DNA of 37,644 nucleotides, taken from a virus (taxonomy: Duplodnaviria > Caudoviricetes). Positions 4,492 through 37,247 of this stretch are shown one piece after another. The notes under the pieces are model-generated. The model made no database searches. It saw nothing but the letters and a program-made list of their open reading frames with translations, and was not told the DNA's origin. The position numbers were made by a program, and so were the translations under genes. How positions within the stretch are numbered: position 1 is the stretch's first letter; every line of letters begins with the position of its first letter. The stretch is taken from the IMG/VR virus record IMGVR_UViG_3300030372_000318, positions 1-37,644 of that record. One strand, written 5' to 3'.

Positions 4492-7400
4492 TATGCGGTG
4501 TAACTCCCATCTCCATTATATGTTAATACCGTATCAGATCCTGATGTTGTTACCGTTGGGGAACCACTTGTTGTGCCTGAGTAGTTAGCAGTTGGCATAC
4601 GAAGAATAACAATACCAGAACCACCAGAACCACCACTAGTGCTTCCACTGGCTCCGCCACCGCCACCGCCACCAGTATTAGAACTTCCAGACGAGCCATT
4701 ACCACTATAATTTCCACCATTACCACCACCACCAGAACCACCAGAGCCGTTAGAGTTTCCACCACCGCCTCCACCACCTGCTCGTGTAACAGATGAACCT
4801 GTAATTGAAGATGCACCACCAGCACCACCAGCACCACCTGAACTTTGATTATTTGTAGAAGCACCTACAGCAGAAGCACCACCACCTCCAGCACTACCGT
4901 CTCTTTGCCCTGAAACACCACTTCGACATTTTGTGCTTCCTCCAGCAAAACCTTGATTAGCTGTTCCAGAACCACCAGACCTAGTCGATGTATCACCACC
5001 ACCGCCTCCACCAGAACCTCCAGCAACACCATTCTGTGAACGTGCACCACCACCACCGCCACCATTTGAAGTGATAGTAGTAATATCTGAGCCTGATACA
5101 GAACTGTTAGTACCAGTTGCTCCATTATTAGATGACGATGTTCCAGACGAGCCACCGCCTCCGCCACCACCTACTGAAACTGTGTAAACTACACCGGGTG
5201 TGAAAGTTAAACCTGATTCGGAACTTGCTCCACCACCAGAAGTTTCGGAGCTATAAGAATTTCTATATCCGCCAGCACCACCACCACCAGCAGAAAAACC
5301 GGGGGCACCTGAGTGTCCACCACCACCGCCTCCACCAGCGATTACTAAAAAATCAACTGTATAATTATTTTGAATAGTAATACTGTCAGCAGCCGAGGCT
5401 AAAGATTCAGCAAATGTATTTGTTGTATCTTGAGCTTTAGCTGTTACTGAATAGGTACCTTCTGCTGTAAATTGAATAGTAACAGCAGGATTATTTGTAG
5501 TGAATCCAGTTACCTCAACTGTGTTTCCTACTTTACTTCCAGTACCATGAGATACGCTTTGATAAGTAAAGTTAGGAGATCCAATATCTAATATAAGTTT
5601 GTTATCATTAGCATGGGTTGAAGTAATAGTATAGACAATATTTGTTGCTGTACTATTATCAGCAGGTGAGCTTAATGTAGGTGCTGATAATTTTGTTTTT
5701 ATGTTTTTAGTTAATGTATTTGAGTCGGCTAAACCAAGGCTATCAGTCTCTGCTTTAACTGTATAAGAAGGATGATCTCCTGTTTCAGTTATAACAAATT
5801 GACCAGATGTATTAACTGTACCTATTGTGCAGTTAGTTGGGGTAAAAGTATAAGTAACATCATCCGACCAGTTAGTAATTGTATGTGTAACAGTTCCACC
5901 ATCAGCTACTTCTAAGTCTCCAGTTATAACAGGTGTATCTAATGTTGGAGTTGCAATAACTTGCCAGCTACCATCACCTCTTAGAAAGTTTGTATTATTT
6001 GCTGTTCCACTTCCAAGTCTTGCTGTTGGTACTGTTCCAGATGTTAAATTACCTGCATTTAAATTAGTTAAATCTATTGTCTCGTAGCTTGGGTCAGCAC
6101 CATTATTAGCTCTTAAAAATTTACCGTCATTGCTAGATGTACCATGTTCTAATTTTGTAAGCGATATAGAATCATCTGCTAGTTTAGAACCTGCTATAGC
6201 TGCACTAGCATTTACATCTGCGTTTACAATATCTAAAGCAGCAAGTTTAGATTTGGCTATAGCTGCACTTGCATTAATATCAGCATTGACAATAGCTCCA
6301 TCTACTATTTTTGCACTTGTTACGGTGTTGTCGCTTGGTGCTCCAATACTAACTGTTGCTCCGATAGTAACAATAAAGAAATCAGCACCACTAGGAGGAG
6401 CAGAACTAAATACAATGTTTGCACCATCCAAAGCAAACCCTTCACTAGGTTGTCCTGTACCAGAATTAGGTTTTTGTATTACACCTGCAATACTTACAAG
6501 CATCTGTTGAGCAAAAGCACCTGCATTGCTTAAAGTAAATTTATAAGCAGAACCATTAAACGTGGCACTATTACCACCAGTACCAGAAAATTGGCTTATT
6601 GTATTTATAAAGAAATTACCAATAGTTTGTGTTTCTTCCCACGCACTAGTATTTGCGTTATATACAAGTAATTTTCCTAAATTTGTATTATAAAATAAAT
6701 CACCATTATCTAAATCAGTTGTTGGATTTGTTGTTCCAACTCTATATCTTTCTGCAAAAGCATTAACACCTGCTAAACCTGTAGCTACTGTATTAACATT
6801 TGCAATATTACTACCAACGTTATTAACGTTTGCAATTGCACCGCCAACTGCGTTTACATTAGCTTGGTTATTAGCTACCGCAGATACCTCTGTCGATATA
6901 CCTGCAACTGTATTTACGTTTGCAATATTATTTCCAACATTATCAACATTACCAATTGCGTTTGCAACAGTATCAATTTCAGATGTTGTTTCTTGTAAAT
7001 CTGCTGCTGCTGTTTCAATTTCTGAAACAGTTTCATTTAAATCATTAGCTACGGTAACTACTTTAGCTATATCTGCTGCAACAGTATTAACATTTGATAT
7101 GTTGCTTGCTACCGTGTTGACGTTTGATATAGATCCACCGACAGCATTTACATTACTAATTGAACCTGCAACTGTATTTGTATTAGTTAAATTAGTTCCA
7201 GATATATTTAAATCTAACCAAGTAGTATTACCAAGGTCATAAACCCTCATAATATTAGAGGTTGTATTGAAATATAATGCTCCGTCTATTAACGCATTAC
7301 CGTCATTATCAAGTGTAGGGTTATTAGCTTTAGCACCTAAGTATCTATCGTCAAAAGAATCTAATGCAGCTTCTGCTGCTGTCTTTGCTGTCTCCGCAGC

Positions 7401-8354: not shown

Positions 8355-11300
8355 TTATTTTCCTGTACCTTTCTTACCTGTTATCAAACCTCTTAAGAAA
8401 TCAATTGGTCCTTTAGGAGTAACATCACCACGTTGTATATCTTTTAAATATCCTAATGTTCTGCCTATTGGAGTAAGTGGAATACCAGACGACAAAGTTG
8501 CCATAGTAAATAAATCTCTAATTTGTTTACCTTTTATTCCTTCTGGACCTTCTTGCCATAATGTACTTGGCACATTAAATATTGAACGAAGTGAATCTTG
8601 CAAAGTTTCAATACTTGGGCTGTTTACTATATCATCATCCCAAGGTTTATTGTTATATTGATTAATTGGTATTAAAGCAAGTTGACCTGCAACCGGAATT
8701 AAACCTACTGTGTAATCAGCAACATCTCCAAAAGCAGCTTTTACCATATCGTCAAATATATATCCATCATCATTTTCGTCTTCTATTCTGCCACCTAAAC
8801 CTCTCATAATAATACCTGCTACAATTGCCGGCAAAATTACAGTATATAAATACATATAAAATATTTGCTCAGTACCTTTGCCTTTATTTTTAAAACCTAA
8901 ATCATCTTTTGCTAATTTCTGATATTGAGTAAAACCTAAATTTGCAATCATATTAAAATAACCAGTAAATTGTGTCAATGCTTGTACTAATGGATTCATG
9001 TTTTGGAATGCTGCTCTGTCTTCTGGCAATAAACTATCTTGCGTCATACGCACATTTGCATCTGCTTGTTTTATTGCTTCTTTCATAACTTCTGCATCAC
9101 TCATGTTTGAAGGCATATCTTCATGTACTTGGTTATAAGTTCCTATCCAAACAATAGAATCTACCACTCCTTGAGTTGCTTGTTGTATAAAATATCCATG
9201 ATGTTTGCCCCAAGCTTGTGCTTTTTGAAATTTATTAGGATTAATAATTAATTCATTTAATCTATCTTGTATATCAAATATCAAATTTTGTTGTCTATCT
9301 GCCATAAAAGGTGATGCTGCTGCAATCATTTGATTTGTTCCTTCTCTATCTCTCATATATTTAAATAAACCAGTTTTTAAATGTCTTGGTTTTACTTTTA
9401 TTAATGCAGGGAACAAACCTGTAAGCTGTTGAAGTGCGTTGCTTATATTGGCAAACATAATGCCGATACCTGTTCTTCGTATAATAGTTTTTACGACACG
9501 GTCAAATCTTGCACCAAATCCAGAAGGTGCATATGTTTTTTGACTTGCTGCTGATTGTAACCAAGGAATTATCATTTCATCTTTGATATGCGGATCAATA
9601 ATTTCTAATTTTTTTGTAAAGTCTTTATCATTTATAATTTTTAAAAGATCGTTCAATACTGGTTGCACATAAGAATAACGTAATGTGTCATCAATATGTT
9701 TTGTCATAAAACCTAAATGCAATGATAAAGGTTGATAAAAAGTTTCAACACGTTGTTTAGTCATGCCGTCTTTAACTTTTGGTAATGAATTTTTAAATTC
9801 CATTTTCATAGCAGTTATTTCTTCTTTTAAATCAACTTTCGTCATATTAGGATCACCTTTAGCAGGTACATATCCACCTCTATATTCACCAAATCTGTTT
9901 AATATAGGTCTTGCTTTTTGTACTTTAAAATAATATCCTTCAGTTTCTTTATGTGCTTTTTGTAGAAGAGGTAACATTTTTTCATTTAGATCCCATACTG
10001 CCTGTATAAAATCATAATCATTTTTAGTTAAGATTCCTTCGTTTTTCATTCGTGTTTCAAACGCATCCCATTGTGTTCTATCTAACGATCCGTCTTCGTT
10101 TAATTTTCCCCATCCTCTACCTAATAACAATTTTGTTAAATTACTATCATTTCCAGTATGTAACATAGCTCCTAGCAATTCGACTTTACCTCTGCCATTA
10201 CTTTGTGATCCAAATGTATATGGTCTAGAACTTTCTTGTACCATTGCAAATTCATTTGCAACTATAGTTTCCTTACCAAAATCAACAGAGTTAACTAAAT
10301 CAGAATATTCTTTTGTAAATATAGTTTGTGCTTGCCTGTATTGATCCAATGTCGATTTCATTGGATACCACAAAAGATTATAAAAATCACCTAACTTTCC
10401 ACCTTCTAATTCTAATACTGCTGATCCAATACCTTTCTTTAAATTACTTGCACCATCCATCATGTCAGCCCAAGGTTCAAAACGTCTTAATTTTGCACCT
10501 GATTCTAAAAAGAATTTATTTAATTGATATAAAAATGTGTCAGGAACTGCTTCTGTTGTACCTTCTGGCGTGTCTCTTCTTTCTCTTAATTTCTTACTCC
10601 TTTCAATTATTACATCTTGTCGATTATTTAATTTATCAATAGCTATTTGTTTATCTATTAATTGACCTTCAACTCTTATTTGGTTGACACGAAGTGATTG
10701 ATACCATAGTGATTCAATTAAACTATCAAAACTTTGAAATTCTTCGTATGTTAAATCTTTAAAATCTTGTTTAGACTTTGTTGCTCGTGCATTTAAAATC
10801 ATTGGTTCTAATTCTGTATATAACTCTGGGTCGTATTTTCTTAAGTTTTCTATGTATACTTCTGCATTTTCAACTGTAGGGCCAAATCCATAGGACGATA
10901 AAATTACACGTCCTGCATCTATGAAATCTGGTTCTCTTTGATACTTGCCTTTTTTAGTTAATTGTTTATCTGTTTTTTTAAAGAAATTCTTTTTATAATT
11001 TTTAATTGCTTTATCAAATTCTTTATGTATTTCTATAGATTCTTTTGCTAATTGATTGTTTATTAATTGAGAGCGTTTTGCTTTTATTGCAGCTTTTGTA
11101 TCTCCTTTTTTCATGGCTGCTTCAGCTTCTTTTAATGCTCTAGCTTCAGCACGAGTAAATTCTGATGGTCTTATTTCTTTTAATTTTTTATCTGCTAATA
11201 CATCTTTTGCAACTTGTCTTGCTGCTTCAACTTGAAAACGTACTGGACGCATTGCTTTAGCTAAAGTGTTTAGCTCTACAGCTACAAATCTTGCTCTTGC

Positions 11301-14300
11301 TTCATTATGTATGGCATCTATAATTTGCAATTCTTGTTGTTGTGGATTTACTAAATCACTATGTAGCTCTAACATACGTTGTTGCGTACGTTCCGTTATA
11401 GCTTCTTTAATTGGTTGTAATGTAAGTAATGTATCTATCATTGATAACGCATCTGAAAATTCAAACAGTTCCGCAACAAGATTTACATCTAAACCTTCTT
11501 TATCAAGATACCCACGTTTACCTGTACCTAATTCTTTAATTTCTGCCTTTTGTAAAACTTCATCATAAAAAGGAATTAATTTTTTATAACTATCTATTGA
11601 TATTTTATGATTGCCTTCGACTTTAACAGTTTCACCTTTATCATTAACAGTTTCACCACGTTGTAAAAACATATGTAATTTGTATCTTTTATTTTGTAAA
11701 ACTTCTTTAGTAGCTATAGCTTCTTCTTGTTTATATAATTTATTTATTTTTCTATCTATTTCTTTTTGTATTTTTGGCATTTTCTTTCTTATCCAACGCA
11801 CCTGTTTCATACTGTCTAATGTCATTATTTCTAATGTTTCCTCTTCTGCTTCGTCTAACGCTGCTGTATATTCTGCCCATTCCGCATCATTCATACCGCT
11901 TTGTTCTTGTGTTTGGAACATAGCTTTTAACTCATATATTTGTTCTGCTTGTACTATTTGTTCATTAGTAGCCAACATCCGATCCATAACGCTTCTAACT
12001 TCATTAGTTAGAATTGGTAAATCTTTACCAGTTTCACGTTTATATAATTCGTTTAATCTTGTACTAACATCTTGATAAACTTCTTTTATAAAGTTTGCAA
12101 ATTTTCTAAATACATTTTGTAATTCTTTACTTGGTGCTTTCTTTTTTGCATCAAATAAATATAGTTCAAAATTATAAGCAAAGGCTTCGTGATATTCTCT
12201 TTTTTGATTTATATCAAAATTTTGCCATGTTTCTAAATCTTTTACACCCCAGAATTTTAAAAGGGTATTAAAATCAGCAATTAAATCTGGTGGAGCATTA
12301 TCAGTTGCAACTATATTTTCTAGAACAGTTAGCATATAGTGCGCTGTCTCATGTGCAAACGTAGAAAAATCTGCTTCTTGAGTTAATAAGGTTGTTAAAG
12401 TAGTTGGCTCAAACCTTCCTCGTGGACCTTTAGACGTTTGCTGCTCAAAAGATTCTTCTGTTTTTACTTGAACAGAGCCTCCAGCAGTTCCAACTGAGAG
12501 TCTGTAATCTCTTCGTCCGTTAGGGAATTCATCATCGAGACTAAGTCTAGAAGGGTCGATCCTGATGGCAACTGCTGTATTGCCATAGCCAGTATCTGCG
12601 ATAGCTCTGGTGGTAACGTAGACATCAGGTTCTCCAGCACTTCTGAGTTCACCTGTAGCTCTGATTCGTTCTGCTGATTTTCTGTCGGTGTGGTGGTAGA
12701 CGGTAACTGTTCCGTCTGGGTTGAGGGGAAGTCCTGTGGTTTCGTCAATGTTTTCTTGTTGTTGGAAAGTATCAATCTCTCGTACCTGTCCAGATCCTCC
12801 AACATCTCGTTGTGTGTCTCCTGATTGCTCCTCGGATTGTACTGATAACTCATTGTCTACCTCCTGTATTGTGGCTTGTATGTCGCTTTCTGGTATCCCC
12901 ATTGTAGCAACTAAATTTGCAGCAGCATTTGCGTAATCAGGTGCTGCGTTATCTTCGTAACCTGTTTCTACTACTGTTTCCTTAAGTTTTGCAGTATCAT
13001 ATAATTTTTTTTCTGGATACCACATTAATGCCTGTAAATCTGCCATTGTTAAATCTGGATTCTGTTGTTGCAGTACTGGCAATACTTGTCCAAAAATCTT
13101 TTCTATAAATCTTCTTTCTGGTGGTCCTTTAGGCTGTTCTTTTTGACCATCTAAATACCCTGCTAATGAATTACCTGCCCTACGAATTTCATCTCCAATA
13201 CTTACTCTAAGTTCACCTTTTATAGGTTTGCCTTTAATGTTTGTTATTACTTCATCAATATTGTTATCAGGTTGTATTAATGCTATTTCTGCCATTAAAT
13301 CACGATTTGCAGGTATGGTTGTTCTAGTTTCGATTCTTTTTGCAACCGCATCTAAATCACCTAAAGTCAGTTTTCTTCCAAGAATTGTTTCAAATGCTTT
13401 TTTTTGTTCTTTAGTTAAAGCTTTTATATATTGTTTTAATTGCTCACGTTTATTTTTAGCTTGTTTTGTATAGTCAGTAACTAGCGTACCTGTCATTCGA
13501 CCCCATGTACGCATAGCCCATCTATCTAAAGTTAATTGTTCATAGTTGCCATATAGATTTGCAAAAAAACCATTACCAATTTTTGGCCCTATAACAGCAG
13601 CACCATATACTATTTCTGTTTTCCCAAAATCTTTTATTTCTACTCCGGTATATGTTTCAACTTCTTTTACTGTATGTGTTGTACTCATAAATTTCTCAAC
13701 GTCTTCTACACCATTTTTTTCAATTAATTTATTTATAAGTTTAAAACTTTTTGTCATTGCACGACCTGCTTTGCCTTGTCCATAAGGTGTTGGAAAAACA
13801 CCGTTTTGTTTCCAATAACTGTAGATATCTTCTGCTAGTTCAAAGTTTTTATTTACATTTATACCGTTAGATGAAGTTGCTAATGCCCAAGTAAAAGCAA
13901 AATTTGACGCTGCATCGGTAGTTAATTCTGGATGTATTTTTGCTAATAACCTTTTAGCTTTTGTAACTTTTTCGTTGTACCAACCTATTGCGTTTGGATT
14001 TTCTTGTAAAGCGTATTGAGCATCTGCTAATAATGTTTTTACAAGATATTTTTCTGTCTCAACACTACTATCTGACAAATCAACTCTTGCTCTTTTAGCA
14101 GCAGCTAGTATACGTTTTTGGATTTCAACTTTAAAATCTTTAATAGTTCCAAAAGGTTTGCTACTTGCAAAATCAAAATTTTCTACAATTCTTGCTAATT
14201 GGTATACCTCTTCTGATACTGGTTTACCTTTTTTTTGTGTCGCTTTTTGTTCAAAAAATTCTAATGCTTGTTGCTCATATATATTATTTATTTCATTAGA

Positions 14301-16910
14301 CCAATTACCATTATTGTCTACTGACTTAACACCATTAACGTCAAAAATGACTACTTCTACAACTTCACCTGCATCGCTTTTAACTATTACGCCATCATGG
14401 CCTTCTGCTATTAATTTATCTCTATAATTATCTGCTGCTGTTCTACCGCCTTGTTTTATATCACGTTTTATTTTTCTTAAATCTTCTATCTTTGGATTTT
14501 CTAAACGTGCATATAACTTCAGTACTTTTTTCTCTCCTTTTACTCTAATACTTTTCTTTTCTGCATAATGTTTTGCCAACCCTAAATCAGGAGTCAAATA
14601 AACACCAGTACCTGCAAAACCTGTGTCATACCTATTAGGATGATCAAGGTCAAAATAGTCAAAACTATTAATAGTTCCGTGGTACATAACTTGAGGTGTA
14701 CCATCGGGATTAATTAATTTAGATTTTCTAAACCAATTTTTAAATAATTGTGTATCAGTTTTAATTGTGCCGTCTTGATTAAAAAATTGTTTTGTGAAAG
14801 TTTTTCTATCTCTTGTATCTTTTTGAATGTTGTATTGGAATTGATTTATAAATTCTAATGGTGTAATACCTAAACGCTTAGCAAAAGTTGCTGCAAATGC
14901 TTGTGGCAATGCTGCCATGTCTCGTGCATCTGCCGGCTTATACCCTGCATCTCGCAATTGTTTTGCAATTTGTCTTTTAACTGCTTTAGATTCACTTTGA
15001 AATTCAAGCAAATTAATTTTTGCTTTATTTGTTTCTTCTCTCACAGCAGCTAAAAGTTCTGGTTGTTGTTTAAAAAACTCCATCATTTCTGTTTGGCTAT
15101 ATTCTTTCTCACCAATTTTCAAATGTGGAAATAATGAATTACCTAAATTTGTACCAGAAATTTCTGCTATATATTTACCGGCAGGTATTTTTATAAGTTT
15201 ACCCACTGTTCCTTCTTTAGCTGCATCTTCTAATTGTTTAACAACATCTGGAGAAAACATTTCTAATTGTCCTTCAGTTATTTGATTGTTATCTAACTCT
15301 TGTTTAAATGTATTTACGTCAAAATAAAAATCCGTTATACCTGACTTATCTGCTAATGCCTGTGCGTAATTTCCATATTTATCTGGGCTTCTTTGTTTTG
15401 TTTTGTCATTTTTAGATATTTGCGTTAATTTTTCTAATACAGAAGTTGTATTTCTAGCTTTAACTGCTTTATTGAAATTAGTTCTATAAGTCATTCCCGG
15501 TCCTATTAATCCAAATATGACCATACCTTTCATGGTTTCTGTTAATGTGTTCCATAATCTCAATAATCCTTCCTTAGTACCTATTGTTTCTATTTCTTCT
15601 TGACTCATATCAGCAAACAAGTTTACACCTGTTATTGCTATTAATTCTTGTGCAAATTCTTGACCAGTTTCTGTACCTAAAACAACTACATAATCTTTAA
15701 TAAATTCTCTATTAATAAAATTCCATGTAAGTTTTTTTCCATTTTTACTAAGTGCATTTTTAGAAATTTCTCTAGAAAATTTATTTTTAAAAATTTTTGC
15801 TAACCCAGAACGAGCAAACATATCTTTTACTCCCGGTACTGCCTTTAAATATCTAGGTCCAATAAGACTTAAACCATATCTTTCTATAAAAGCATTAGCT
15901 GTACCTACAGCATTTGCTTTCAAAAAAGCTTCATTCATTGTATAACCTCTTTCTCTTAGCTCTAACCATGAATGACCAGACTCAACTAATTGTGTATCAA
16001 GAGCTAATTTATTAGAAAAAGCATTCCAACCAGTAAACAAACCTACAAAATTACCAATTGTACCTCCTATAAATGCTCCTACTGCTTCACCACCAATCAT
16101 TATTGGTCCATCAGGAATAAAAAAACCTGCACCTGTGCCAATTTTTGTGCCAAACCAAGTGCTTGCTTTCCATGTTCCTAGTCCTGTTAACGCAGCTTCT
16201 GGTATTGCAGAACCCCATTGACCTGCAAAGTAACCAAAACCTTCAACAAAACCAACGCCATCTGCGTCATATTTTTGTATTGTTTCACTTATTTCTTTAA
16301 GTCTTGCAAAATCTTCTTTGTCTTGGTCAGTTGGCACATAATCAGGATTAAAACCTGTTTCAAAATCTACTATTTCTACACCTCTATGCATTAATTCGTT
16401 GGCTAACAAACCCATTTCTCTGCTTAAATGACCTTTATGTAAGCCTTGCCATCCATCTCTTGGTATATCAATTATAGTTTCCCATAGGTTTTCATTTTGG
16501 ACTAAGTTTGGAATATTGTCATGTGCTATGGCTGCAAAATTAGGATCATTTAATTGCCTTGCTAAAACAGGGTTTAACATAGACAATTGTCTAGCTTTTA
16601 TATTTTGTTGTCTAACTTTATTTTTTAAATATTCTAATGATTGGGAACTATCTAATATCATTCCTTCAGGAAGACCTAATTTATTAGATAAAGTTAGTGC
16701 TTCTCCAACTAAATTTGGATCTTTTTGTGCTGCGGATTCTAATAAAATTTTTAATTTATTATCATTTTGTTTTGCGTCTGCCTGATAATACCTATCAAAA
16801 ACATTTGAGTTTTCTCCCAGATTTTGTCGTGAACGATAAGCGTTGTTGCCAATGTCAGACATTTCATTGTTAGCATTATAAAATGAATCAAATGGATTAG
16901 AATTTGTCAT
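8355..16910 (-). CDS. Giant internal virion / DNA-ejection protein (Bbp10-like position) with polyvalent cargo domains: two ART-like, HhH glycosylase-like, HExxH peptidase
   Basis: 2851 aa; third gene after tail tube B; motifs MYHGT…GVYLT…GHDGVI, GPKIG…TLDRW…DLQALMW, TVYHHT…VYVTT, FAHETAH; hydrophobic Gly-rich segments near both ends. Confidence 0.85.
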   Translation of the reverse strand: MTNSNPFDSFYNANNEMSDIGNNAYRSRQNLGENSNVFDRYYQADAKQNDNKLKILLESAAQKDPNLVGEALTLSNKLGLPEGMILDSSQSLEYLKNKVRQQNIKARQLSMLNPVLARQLNDPNFAAIAHDNIPNLVQNENLWETIIDIPRDGWQGLHKGHLSREMGLLANELMHRGVEIVDFETGFNPDYVPTDQDKEDFARLKEISETIQKYDADGVGFVEGFGYFAGQWGSAIPEAALTGLGTWKASTWFGTKIGTGAGFFIPDGPIMIGGEAVGAFIGGTIGNFVGLFTGWNAFSNKLALDTQLVESGHSWLELRERGYTMNEAFLKANAVGTANAFIERYGLSLIGPRYLKAVPGVKDMFARSGLAKIFKNKFSREISKNALSKNGKKLTWNFINREFIKDYVVVLGTETGQEFAQELIAITGVNLFADMSQEEIETIGTKEGLLRLWNTLTETMKGMVIFGLIGPGMTYRTNFNKAVKARNTTSVLEKLTQISKNDKTKQRSPDKYGNYAQALADKSGITDFYFDVNTFKQELDNNQITEGQLEMFSPDVVKQLEDAAKEGTVGKLIKIPAGKYIAEISGTNLGNSLFPHLKIGEKEYSQTEMMEFFKQQPELLAAVREETNKAKINLLEFQSESKAVKRQIAKQLRDAGYKPADARDMAALPQAFAATFAKRLGITPLEFINQFQYNIQKDTRDRKTFTKQFFNQDGTIKTDTQLFKNWFRKSKLINPDGTPQVMYHGTINSFDYFDLDHPNRYDTGFAGTGVYLTPDLGLAKHYAEKKSIRVKGEKKVLKLYARLENPKIEDLRKIKRDIKQGGRTAADNYRDKLIAEGHDGVIVKSDAGEVVEVVIFDVNGVKSVDNNGNWSNEINNIYEQQALEFFEQKATQKKGKPVSEEVYQLARIVENFDFASSKPFGTIKDFKVEIQKRILAAAKRARVDLSDSSVETEKYLVKTLLADAQYALQENPNAIGWYNEKVTKAKRLLAKIHPELTTDAASNFAFTWALATSSNGINVNKNFELAEDIYSYWKQNGVFPTPYGQGKAGRAMTKSFKLINKLIEKNGVEDVEKFMSTTHTVKEVETYTGVEIKDFGKTEIVYGAAVIGPKIGNGFFANLYGNYEQLTLDRWAMRTWGRMTGTLVTDYTKQAKNKREQLKQYIKALTKEQKKAFETILGRKLTLGDLDAVAKRIETRTTIPANRDLMAEIALIQPDNNIDEVITNIKGKPIKGELRVSIGDEIRRAGNSLAGYLDGQKEQPKGPPERRFIEKIFGQVLPVLQQQNPDLTMADLQALMWYPEKKLYDTAKLKETVVETGYEDNAAPDYANAAANLVATMGIPESDIQATIQEVDNELSVQSEEQSGDTQRDVGGSGQVREIDTFQQQENIDETTGLPLNPDGTVTVYHHTDRKSAERIRATGELRSAGEPDVYVTTRAIADTGYGNTAVAIRIDPSRLSLDDEFPNGRRDYRLSVGTAGGSVQVKTEESFEQQTSKGPRGRFEPTTLTTLLTQEADFSTFAHETAHYMLTVLENIVATDNAPPDLIADFNTLLKFWGVKDLETWQNFDINQKREYHEAFAYNFELYLFDAKKKAPSKELQNVFRKFANFIKEVYQDVSTRLNELYKRETGKDLPILTNEVRSVMDRMLATNEQIVQAEQIYELKAMFQTQEQSGMNDAEWAEYTAALDEAEEETLEIMTLDSMKQVRWIRKKMPKIQKEIDRKINKLYKQEEAIATKEVLQNKRYKLHMFLQRGETVNDKGETVKVEGNHKISIDSYKKLIPFYDEVLQKAEIKELGTGKRGYLDKEGLDVNLVAELFEFSDALSMIDTLLTLQPIKEAITERTQQRMLELHSDLVNPQQQELQIIDAIHNEARARFVAVELNTLAKAMRPVRFQVEAARQVAKDVLADKKLKEIRPSEFTRAEARALKEAEAAMKKGDTKAAIKAKRSQLINNQLAKESIEIHKEFDKAIKNYKKNFFKKTDKQLTKKGKYQREPDFIDAGRVILSSYGFGPTVENAEVYIENLRKYDPELYTELEPMILNARATKSKQDFKDLTYEEFQSFDSLIESLWYQSLRVNQIRVEGQLIDKQIAIDKLNNRQDVIIERSKKLRERRDTPEGTTEAVPDTFLYQLNKFFLESGAKLRRFEPWADMMDGASNLKKGIGSAVLELEGGKLGDFYNLLWYPMKSTLDQYRQAQTIFTKEYSDLVNSVDFGKETIVANEFAMVQESSRPYTFGSQSNGRGKVELLGAMLHTGNDSNLTKLLLGRGWGKLNEDGSLDRTQWDAFETRMKNEGILTKNDYDFIQAVWDLNEKMLPLLQKAHKETEGYYFKVQKARPILNRFGEYRGGYVPAKGDPNMTKVDLKEEITAMKMEFKNSLPKVKDGMTKQRVETFYQPLSLHLGFMTKHIDDTLRYSYVQPVLNDLLKIINDKDFTKKLEIIDPHIKDEMIIPWLQSAASQKTYAPSGFGARFDRVVKTIIRRTGIGIMFANISNALQQLTGLFPALIKVKPRHLKTGLFKYMRDREGTNQMIAAASPFMADRQQNLIFDIQDRLNELIINPNKFQKAQAWGKHHGYFIQQATQGVVDSIVWIGTYNQVHEDMPSNMSDAEVMKEAIKQADANVRMTQDSLLPEDRAAFQNMNPLVQALTQFTGYFNMIANLGFTQYQKLAKDDLGFKNKGKGTEQIFYMYLYTVILPAIVAGIIMRGLGGRIEDENDDGYIFDDMVKAAFGDVADYTVGLIPVAGQLALIPINQYNNKPWDDDIVNSPSIETLQDSLRSIFNVPSTLWQEGPEGIKGKQIRDLFTMATLSSGIPLTPIGRTLGYLKDIQRGDVTPKGPIDFLRGLITGKKGTGK
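12464..12853 (-). CDS. Nested +1-frame gene, acidic helical protein; candidate immunity/antitoxin for the overlapping ART-like domain
   Basis: 129 codons; AGGAGG 6 nt upstream of ATG (CAGGAGGTAGACAATG); host-frame codons shift to C/T endings that avoid +1 stops; stop falls at the end of the ART domain. Confidence 0.7.
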   Translation of the reverse strand: MSYQYNPRSNQETHNEMLEDLDRYERLILSNNKKTLTKPQDFPSTQTEQLPSTTTPTENQQNESELQVNSEVLENLMSTLPPELSQILAMAIQQLPSGSTLLDLVSMMNSLTDEEITDSQLELLEALFK

Positions 16911-35240: not shown

Positions 35241-35500
35241 GAAAAATTAACATCACCGTCTACGTCAATGACGAGTATTCCCTTTACGACATTCTTAAAG
35301 AAGTTAGATCTGAAATAGACCGCAAGGTTTTTACAAGAGAAAACATTAGGCAACGCAAGTTTAGTGGTACATGGGAAGTTGAAAAAGATTACAAGTCACC
35401 TGCATGGCCGTATCACGGTAATTATGAAACCGTAGCTAAATGGGAATCTAACGTAGTTCCCAACAAAGAATTTATTCAATTTCAAAAGGAATCTAACTAA
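35237..35500 (+). CDS. Hypothetical protein (87 aa)
   Basis: GAGGT site upstream; ATGA and TAATG coupling. Confidence 0.75.
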   Translation: MRKINITVYVNDEYSLYDILKEVRSEIDRKVFTRENIRQRKFSGTWEVEKDYKSPAWPYHGNYETVAKWESNVVPNKEFIQFQKESN

Positions 35501-36450
35501 TGACCACAAAATCGTACCCAATTACAGACAAGCAATCATGGCTAGAAAACAGATTGCTTGATGTCACCTCTACTGAGGTATCAGCATTGTTTAATCTCAA
35601 CCCATACCAAACAGAGTTTGAACTGTACCACCAGAAAAAAGATAAGGTGGTAGTCAACATTGATGACAACGAACGCATGGCATGGGGTCGCAGACTTGAG
35701 GATTCTATTGCTTTAGAATTTGCAGATCGCAACAACTTTAAGGTTGAGCAATTTGATGTTTATATGCGTAATCCAAAAACAAGGATGGGCAGTTCTTTTG
35801 ATTACAAAATTGTAAGTGAAGAAGAGCCTATGATTCTTGAGATAAAAAATGTGGATGCATTGGCATATCGCAAGAACTGGATTGAACATGACGAAGACAA
35901 CATTGAACCACCTGAACATATTGCTTTGCAGCTACAACATCAGTTAGAAATTACTGGTTACAACGTGGGTTACATTGTTGCCTTGGTTGGTGGTAACACC
36001 ATGAAGGTAGTCAAAAGTAAAAGAGATCCGGAGATTGGCAAACTTTTAACAGAAAAAGTTAAAAATTTTTGGGAGAAAATACAATCTGGTATAGAACCAA
36101 ACCCTGACTACACTAAGGACGCACAATACATAATGAAAAATTTATGTAACCAAGCAGACGCAAGTTTAATTCTTAATGCTGATGAGGATATGGATAAGTT
36201 GATTGATGAATACAATTTAGTCAACAGAGAATATGCTTCACTTAGCAAAACAAGAGATGCAATCAAGGCACAAATTTTAGATATGAGCCAAAATGCATCA
36301 AAGATTATTTCCGTAAATGGAACAATCAGTTGCGGTATGTCTAAACCAAATAAAGGCAAACTGATAACACAAGACATGGTTGGCACATACCAGAATCCAC
36401 GCAAAGGATACAGAATGTTCCGTTTCAATTCACCTAAAGGAGTTAGCTAA
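35500..36450 (+). CDS. YqaJ-like viral recombination exonuclease
   Basis: WLE.R…TSTEVSALF.LNPYQT.FELY..K; WGRRLE..I; SFDY…LEIKN; QLQHQL; upstream of recT. Confidence 0.9.
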   Translation: MTTKSYPITDKQSWLENRLLDVTSTEVSALFNLNPYQTEFELYHQKKDKVVVNIDDNERMAWGRRLEDSIALEFADRNNFKVEQFDVYMRNPKTRMGSSFDYKIVSEEEPMILEIKNVDALAYRKNWIEHDEDNIEPPEHIALQLQHQLEITGYNVGYIVALVGGNTMKVVKSKRDPEIGKLLTEKVKNFWEKIQSGIEPNPDYTKDAQYIMKNLCNQADASLILNADEDMDKLIDEYNLVNREYASLSKTRDAIKAQILDMSQNASKIISVNGTISCGMSKPNKGKLITQDMVGTYQNPRKGYRMFRFNSPKGVS

Positions 36451-37247
36451 TGACACAATCCATCTCACCACTTGTAGCCATGCAAGGCACACTAGAAAAA
36501 ATGGCAGACAAATTTACTGAAGCTTTGCCAAGGCAAATGGATGTAAACAAATTTATTAGCGTTGCTAAGTTAACGCTAAATAAAAATCCAAAGCTATTAC
36601 AAGCAGACAAAACTAGTTTGATGCAGACTTTTATGAAAGCTGCACAAGATGGTTTGTATCTGGATGGCAAAGAAGCAGCAGCAGTTCAGTATGGGCAATC
36701 AGTTCAGTACATTCCTATGGTCGAAGGAATAATTAAAGTCTTGCACAATAGCGGATTAATAAAAACTTTATGTGCGGAAGTTGTTTATGAAAATGATTTG
36801 TTTGATTATGAATTAGGCACTAAACAACACATAACTCATAAGCCATTAATTACTGGTGATAGAGGTAAACCTGTATGTGTTTATGCAATTGCTGTAACAA
36901 GTAATGATGGTCAATACATAGAGATTATGAACATGGCAGAAATAGATAAATGCCGACAGGTATCTAAAGCTAGTTCATCACCACATTCGCCTTGGACTAA
37001 ATGGTTTGACCAGATGGCAAAGAAAACTGTTATTCATCGTATTGCAAAACGACTACCAAAAAATGATGCAATCAGTTCTGTTGTAAGAATTGAAGAAGAT
37101 AATATGGTAGACATCACACCAAATGAAACTCAATCAACAGAACCAAAAGATTCTTTGTCAAGGTTAAGAGAGTCAATTGGTATGGATGATGCAGGTGTAG
37201 AGCAAGCAAAACAAGAAGTTTTAAATAACTATCGCAAGGAGGAGTAA
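36450..37247 (+). CDS. recT: RecT-family single-strand annealing protein
   Basis: S+MQ.FMKAAQDGLYLDG.EA; AEVVYEND.F.YELG; PW..WFDQMAKKTVI.R.AK.LP. Confidence 0.92.
   Translation: MTQSISPLVAMQGTLEKMADKFTEALPRQMDVNKFISVAKLTLNKNPKLLQADKTSLMQTFMKAAQDGLYLDGKEAAAVQYGQSVQYIPMVEGIIKVLHNSGLIKTLCAEVVYENDLFDYELGTKQHITHKPLITGDRGKPVCVYAIAVTSNDGQYIEIMNMAEIDKCRQVSKASSSPHSPWTKWFDQMAKKTVIHRIAKRLPKNDAISSVVRIEEDNMVDITPNETQSTEPKDSLSRLRESIGMDDAGVEQAKQEVLNNYRKEE

Follow-up and report, generated by a model that had tools for sequence, protein, structure and literature searches.

Does the second open frame inside the gene of a giant phage protein encode a working protein, and, if so, which domain of the giant protein does it serve? 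The question is raised by the window analysed here, a 37,644-nt stretch of tailed-phage DNA (Caudoviricetes, IMG/VR record IMGVR_UViG_3300030372_000318), in which a 2851-aa gene carries a 129-codon open reading frame in its +1 frame, over an ADP-ribosyltransferase (ART)-like domain. An earlier note on this DNA had read the nested frame as the immunity gene of an ART toxin, the two forming one mobile cassette.

The nested frame and its host gene

The genome is podophage-like, and the host gene belongs to its virion morphogenesis operon, together with genes for the head-tail connector, capsid, tail tube, internal virion protein and tail fibre. Its product is a polyvalent protein, in which several disparate enzyme domains are combined with LPDs and encoded in a virion operon (Table 1). 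The gene context, taken together with the polyvalent proteins of phages described in the main text of Iyer et al. 2017 (PMC5512222), suggests that it is an internal virion (ejection) protein. The capsid protein is 84-86% identical to those of two Manatee Spring phages, phage zth2-2 and Limnohabitans phage DC33. Another genome, PQ492659.1 (L236), is placed in the Inoviridae by its taxonomy line, yet is 39 kb long and has a tailed-phage capsid gene, and the label is likely a misassignment. The window also encodes a YqaJ/RecE-like exonuclease paired with RecT.

Table 1. Position of the nested gene, the host domains and other features in the window.
Feature	Position (nt)	Strand	Description
Host gene	8355..16910	-	2851-aa polyvalent protein; LPD22, ART-PolyVal (above the Pfam cut-off), phrog_9880
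First ART domain, ART-PolyVal	14307..14705	-	host residues 736-868; no nested ORF
HhH-GPD DNA-glycosylase-like domain	12843..14240	-	host residues 891-1356; invariant Lys (host 1110) and Asp (host 1129)
Shine-Dalgarno (SD) sequence AGGAGG	12860..12865	-	6 nt 5' of the nested ATG; host frame reads CAG GAG
Nested +1-frame gene	12464..12853	-	129 aa, pI 4.1
Nested protein regions			ancestral N-terminal motif, about aa 1-35; S/T/P/Q-rich middle, aa 36-66; C-terminal half, aa 67-129
Host linker	12750..12842	-	host protein sequence drifts, nested frame conserved
ART-like domain	12465..12749	-	host residues 1388-1482; His1406, Tyr1431, Asp1468; mobile module of polyvalent proteins
HExxH motif	12339-12353	-	just 3' of the ART-like domain
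Alternative-frame ORFs	4550-5323	-	cover the Gly-rich end of the tail-fibre gene
YqaJ/RecE-like exonuclease and RecT pair	35500-37247	+	

The 129-codon frame, its Shine-Dalgarno sequence and the host codons that spell it were all found as the earlier note had described them. The frame covers host residues 1353-1482, and an in-frame +1 stop stands two codons 5' of its ATG. The start itself, which had been placed in a low-complexity linker, falls in the final helix predicted for the upstream domain (residues 451-465 of the model, host 1341-1355), and the linker comes after it. The product is acidic, as had been said, and its C-terminal half looks helical; residues 67-129 are hydrophobic-patterned, new, and overprinted on the ART-like domain.

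Counted as 130 codons, the nested ORF is the longest open stretch in the alternative frames of the host gene, the next being of 56 (+1) and 46 (+2) codons, and the gene as a whole has 290 +1 stops per 2852 codons. When the host residues were recoded with the gene's own codon usage, 9.6 +1 stops were expected over the nested region and none of 20000 trials was stop-free. Permuting synonymous codons within the region, which matches its GC, gave a probability of 0.042 for the absence of a stop, so the openness of the frame in this single genome is suggestive only. The shift in host codons over the overlap, also remarked on earlier, is clear from GC3 (0.32 over the nested region vs 0.15 elsewhere, a rise wholly through C), from CTC (4 inside, 0 outside) and from ATC (4/6 inside vs 6/178 outside). 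Among the internal alternative-frame starts of 20 scanned genes, the nested start has the top SD match (7). There was no excess of promoters (1 found, 2.5 expected), the start shows no stable RNA fold (z 0.65), and no usable family for the nested protein was found in Pfam, PHROGs or Atlas, a match to phrog_1371 (E 2e-4) leading to an unnamed family. Long alternative-frame ORFs also occur over the tail-fibre gene (Table 1), where they are probably a shadow of GGT/GGA repeats.

Conservation of the nested frame

We collected 277 low-GC loci (99 unique) and reduced them to 67 representatives of less than 93% identity. Across the overlapped domain, the +1 frame has no stop in 78 of 80 viral loci, and the +2 frame has 3-13 stops in all of them. 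In the dereplicated set an internal stop is absent from 66/67 relatives, and an SD-like motif followed by a start codon is present in all 67, with ATG (52), TTG (12) and GTG (3) interchanging behind the same SD and ORF lengths of 119-139. Host residue 1350, within the SD region, is spelt GAG in 66/67 relatives, compared with 260 of 2180 Glu codons elsewhere, and a rare ACC ACC pair is retained in 66/67. The nested stop coincides with the end of the ART-like domain in 66/67, which agrees with what the earlier note had seen in the window; in L051 the last 11 nested codons are lost. Programmed +1 frameshifting into the ORF was considered and is disfavoured, since a +1 stop lies just before the start in 52/67 relatives and the start codons alternate.

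At host fourfold sites that are irrelevant to +1 stops, the pairwise difference (counted across the 67 representatives and not tree-corrected) is 0.054 in the linker and 0.178 over the ART-like domain, the two flanks giving 0.38 and 0.47. Of the 23 fourfold columns over ART residues 1420-1481, 15 have a third base that is at least 95% fixed, compared with 5 of 82 in the flanks (p 9e-9). In the linker (residues 1354-1388) the omega of the nested frame is 0.26 (0.12-0.53) and that of the host frame 1.2; over the ART-like domain the nested omega, 0.47 (0.23-0.92), overlaps the flank baseline of 0.76 and 0.60, with a host omega of 0.25. The depletion at stop-irrelevant fourfold sites and the omega values, clear in the linker, thus argue for purifying selection on the nested protein. 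Five nested residues, at host positions 1363, 1367, 1425, 1440 and 1479, are invariant in 67/67 relatives where the host residue varies. Module swapping could reduce diversity, but not in the frame-specific pattern observed. On the evidence of these sequences, the nested gene is real, selected and independently initiated, and two working proteins are likely encoded by the same stretch.

The two host domains touched by the nested gene

According to its AF2 model (pLDDT 88), the upstream domain has the two-lobed helical fold of the HhH-GPD family. The best VIA match of the model is the 8-oxoguanine glycosylase Tm1821 (Z 10.4, a value that helical models can reach; rmsd 4.2, 196 aligned), 21 of the top 23 rows are glycosylase-fold entries by title, and these 23 stand above unrelated rows at Z<=4.8; Foldseek gave no match for this model. 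A Lys and an Asp 19 residues apart are invariant in 49/49 homologues, a spacing that we take to be like that of the catalytic K120 and D138 of endonuclease III. The domain matches DUF7178 with 20.4 bits, under the 27-bit cut-off, and DUF7178 is found in 14-33% of the members of its Atlas neighbours. By fold and motif, the domain is a putative glycosylase.

The overlapped domain has, in its AF2 model (pLDDT 84), the ART-like fold that the earlier note had assigned to it. The VIA list is filled with ART-fold entries, the best being TreTu (Z 7.3, rmsd 2.6, 83 aligned, 11% identity), and Foldseek gave weak matches to Tpt1/KptA, RhsP2 and TreTu, none at E<=0.001. The His, Tyr and Asp listed in Table 1 are conserved in 67/67, 65/67 and 67/67 relatives, respectively, and lie in model strands 1, 2 and 5; their putative catalytic role is by analogy with the ART clade with H, Y and D in strands 1, 2 and 5 that is described in the main text of PMC5512222. 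The module is widespread, with 649 clusters at E<=0.001. No Pfam family matches the overlapped domain at E<=10 (PF18760, ART-PolyVal, hits only residues 736-868), no match to it was seen among GenBank phages, and PDB sequence searches with profiles of the ART-like and HhH-like domains returned nothing meaningful. The HExxH motif that follows the domain has no Pfam hit and is presumably like those of the metallopeptidases of polyvalent proteins; a putative peptidase bearing it could release domains of the giant protein.

Association of the nested gene with the upstream domain

Among 97 unique ART loci, +1 stops are absent in 71 of the 73 low-GC ones, while 23 of the 24 high-GC loci have 1-5 such stops, the 24th being cut by the contig end, and a stand-alone ART gene (L147) has 3. 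No conserved SD-led ORF was found to accompany the non-overlapped ART homologues of the high-GC loci and the stand-alone gene. An open +1 frame, an SD and suppressed synonymous variation, proposed earlier as marks to be sought in ART homologues, are seen in the set of 67 low-GC relatives. Of 150 ART representatives taken, 79 were scorable, and the HhH-like domain precedes the ART-like domain in 3 of them. In L146, where an HhH-like domain is followed by ART, a 51-aa nested ORF stops before ART. With the ORF also occurring where ART is absent, the claimed movement of gene and ART domain as a single cassette is not supported.

The stand-alone gene (L148:860-1198, L147:2986-3324), from a phage of low GC, encodes a 112-aa ART-like protein; it is flanked by ORFs of 73 and 61 aa, lies beside tail-fibre genes and has no nested frame. 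In L130 a different HhH-like domain is followed by ART, and the +1 frame is open for 152 codons, from 85 before to 66 after the ART His motif, with an ATG behind GGAG; this is possibly an independent overprinting of ART, or chance at a GC of 0.49.

In ART-less phages with the upstream HhH-like domain, SD and start are the same and the N-terminal motif, P-x-S-x-Q-E-x-H-N, is related. We grouped 506 loci having the C-terminal anchor of this domain into 57 clusters at 75% identity, 8 ART-adjacent and 49 ART-less (membership by HMM), and applied the fixed rule that an SD and a start codon lie 24-34 codons after the anchor. In the +1 frame this arrangement was found in 8/8 ART-adjacent and 29/49 ART-less clusters (37/57), 20 of the latter lacking it, and in the +2 frame in 0/49; control windows within the domain body gave 0-6 of 49. 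The SD part of this rule is loose and also fires in 23/49 clusters at offsets -9 to +1, just around the anchor, where +1 stops are forbidden by the host composition; this compositional effect limits the fixed rule. The number of +1 stops per codon is 0.000-0.010 at offsets 30-74 vs 0.022-0.083 in the domain body.

With a profile built from ART-less nested ORFs only, the first 40 nested residues of the window score 10.4 bits, a value reached by 0/1000 shuffles; the best of 55 other alternative-frame stretches scores 2.0 bits and the relative L253 21.2 bits. Many distant members of the nested family end in a conserved helical motif, and a likeness of the C-terminus of the window's nested protein to it was rejected, as 244/1000 shuffles score as high as its C-terminal 62 nested residues do against the ancestral family. 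As there is no such match, the role of the nested C-terminus is not inherited, and the linkage is silent on its target. In a reverse search from one nested-family protein, the HhH domain was found in the host frame at 24/24 loci with upstream DNA (4 of 28 lacked it), these phages being near-identical and of little independence. The nested start stays fixed to the end of the HhH-like domain across 36-100% identity and 32-70% GC, and the downstream domains change. The nested gene co-occurs with the HhH-GPD-like domain and not with ART; such a linkage may reflect shared history and not function.

Members of the nested family differ among themselves, with open stretches of 26-92 codons and one subclade with another motif, and since net acidic products are found in only 28/49 ART-less clusters, DNA mimicry is not general. 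The nested ORF is present in the cultured Limnohabitans phage DC33, where it is unannotated, and annotation has also missed the gene family in MW202722 and MW202640. An HhH subclade (L205, L481, L483, L503, L509, L510, L512) has a +1 frame with a different acidic motif, W-D-L-L-D, and a seemingly earlier start. Further +1 ORFs are nested later in the same giant gene in L201 (about 300-385 codons after the anchor), L234 and L235; one of them, about 70 aa long in L201, lies close to where the next domain ends, and another in L201, SD-led and of 61 aa, resembles the middle of the L203 and L301 nested products. Four HhH-domain proteins of 538-564 aa (P0080, P0081, P0085, P0100) stop soon beyond the domain with a tail rich in Arg and Gly; such a tail would be expected were the stand-alone gene overlapped by a +1 partner. 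In a Polynucleobacter genome, on a 2.0 Mb contig, a 61-aa member of the nested family (P0339) has been annotated as a gene.

Origin of the ART-spanning form

A quick tree of the HhH-like domain was built with 49 rows from the 57 clusters (GenBank-only rows and clusters without the full domain were left out). The 8 ART-spanning rows form one clade (100 SH-aLRT) within ART-less lineages that carry nested ORFs of 58-85 aa, and the sister of this clade is ART-less. The ART-spanning form thus has a single origin. As outgroups exist for both frames (ART without the nested ORF, and the nested ORF without ART), the steps of overprinting can be placed on the tree.

From this tree, the ancestor would have carried a nested ORF of 58-85 aa, with a tail running into whichever domain came next. 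The ART module would have arrived downstream, and its few +1 stops (1-5 in non-overlapped copies) would have been lost. The new C-terminal region of 63 residues, predicted to be helical, would then have gained selection atop an ART domain that kept its putative catalytic residues. It would likely serve in the same partner role, in place of the helical C-terminal motif of the distant members. The locus is a datable instance of a protein born de novo, a second frame under selection being read over about 90 codons of an enzyme-like domain that is folded and conserved.

Proposed function and alternatives

Since the nested gene is linked to the HhH-like domain and ART is found without it, the inhibitor idea likely points first at the upstream domain and not at ART. 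We propose, with a probability of about 0.5, that the nested product is an old partner of the HhH-GPD-like domain, which it binds and restrains during late infection, and that it is left behind at ejection. The HhH-like domain would be an active DNA glycosylase/lyase and thereby, in the producing cell, a danger to the phage's DNA. The separately translated nested product would bind this domain while the polyprotein is made and packaged; the giant protein would then be ejected into the next host and the small protein would stay behind, so that the enzyme would arrive free. Such a partnership would suggest how internal effector domains of virion polyproteins retain partner genes, would explain the Arg/Gly-rich linkers of these polyproteins as shadows of a second frame, and would give the ejected proteins a named glycosylase-like domain together with a candidate inhibitor.

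A possible but less probable explanation is that the nested protein is real and is no inhibitor, acting instead as a chaperone in the assembly or ejection of the giant protein, or as an anti-defence protein, and being linked to the HhH-like domain by shared DNA. This would fit the variation in length, charge and C-termini across the 49 clusters, the lack of a family or Atlas match, and the description of polyvalent domains, in the main text of PMC5512222, as acting on the host without named immunity genes. A chaperone or anti-defence role accounts less well for a start that is held at the end of one domain while the downstream domains change, and for the absence of a nested start after the other ART domain of the same gene.

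It is unlikely, in our estimate, that the product is a dual inhibitor, with its old N-terminus binding the HhH-like domain and its new overprinted C-terminal half binding ART. The constancy of the stop at the end of ART, the fixed third bases over residues 1420-1481 and the retained H-Y-D set all agree with a dual role, as does the fact that the closest folds (TreTu, TreX, RhsP2) are toxins with immunity proteins; Pfam EntA_Immun weakly matches 4/66 family members (best E 1.6e-4), the window's not among them, and in L130 a different long +1 frame covers most of ART. Against it stand the 23/24 high-GC ART loci and the stand-alone ART gene, which have no overlapping ORF, the nested ORF of L146, which ends before ART, and L051, which does without the last 11 codons. 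We are just as doubtful of the wider scheme in which polyvalent effectors carry cognate inhibitors as +1 genes behind each domain, one of which would here have grown a helical domain over an active ADP-ribosyltransferase and would neutralise both ART and the preceding glycosylase.

That the nested gene is the immunity gene of the ART toxin, the pair moving together, is very improbable: the shared end of ORF and domain, the ART-like fold and the constraint across the overlap are in its favour, but the distribution is opposite in both directions (ART without the ORF, the ORF without ART) and contradicts it as an account of origin. Least probable is that no functional protein is made and that the frame is open as a result of donor codon usage, recent spread of the module or a constraint on the RNA, which would suit the permutation result in one genome, the nested omega over ART and the non-independent pairwise counts, but not the nested residues that are invariant where host residues vary, the kept ACC ACC, the alternating start codons behind one SD, the linker omegas or the lack of a stable RNA fold at the start.

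Comparison with known systems

Same-strand +1 genes that are embedded in another gene and have their own ribosome-binding site are known from lambda Rz1 in Rz and phiX174 E in D; these have lysis functions, and the products of Rz and Rz1 interact. They have no mobile-domain context. The locus described here adds a second coding frame that spans an entire folded domain, and both frames have outgroups. Our searches yielded no publication that deals with DUF7178 or with genes nested in polyvalent proteins, most subscription papers being outside the coverage of the search. The polyvalent proteins of PMC5512222 are the same kind of giant multi-enzyme virion protein with LPD22 and ART-PolyVal; its main text gives no hit for 'overlap', 'glycosylase', 'helix-hairpin' or 'linker' and does not describe nested partner genes, and the passages of PMC7824862 consulted do not mention genes nested in polyvalent proteins.

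TreTu/TriTu and related Rhs ART toxins (PMC9825190) are the best structural match of the overlapped domain, with a middling Z, but in most phages this ART family has no cognate ORF. In the MuF toxins a phage head-associated effector domain is also followed by a small ORF; according to passages of PMC5576092, such ORFs are the rule (89.4% of 191 toxin genes) and are proposed to confer immunity. There, however, the toxin is C-terminal and the ORF a separate gene, whereas the domain considered here is internal and the ORF is contained entirely within the host gene, in the +1 frame. In RpnL/RpnS (PMC10400984) translation also starts internally, and the small product inhibits the enzyme that the host gene encodes. 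RpnS is in frame and equals the C-terminus of RpnL, whereas here the start is in the +1 frame, the sequence is unrelated and inhibition is only proposed. By analogy, the nested gene would work like the MuF toxin and its ORF, or like RpnL/RpnS, if inhibition holds, and is built like Rz/Rz1, being a member of none of these systems.
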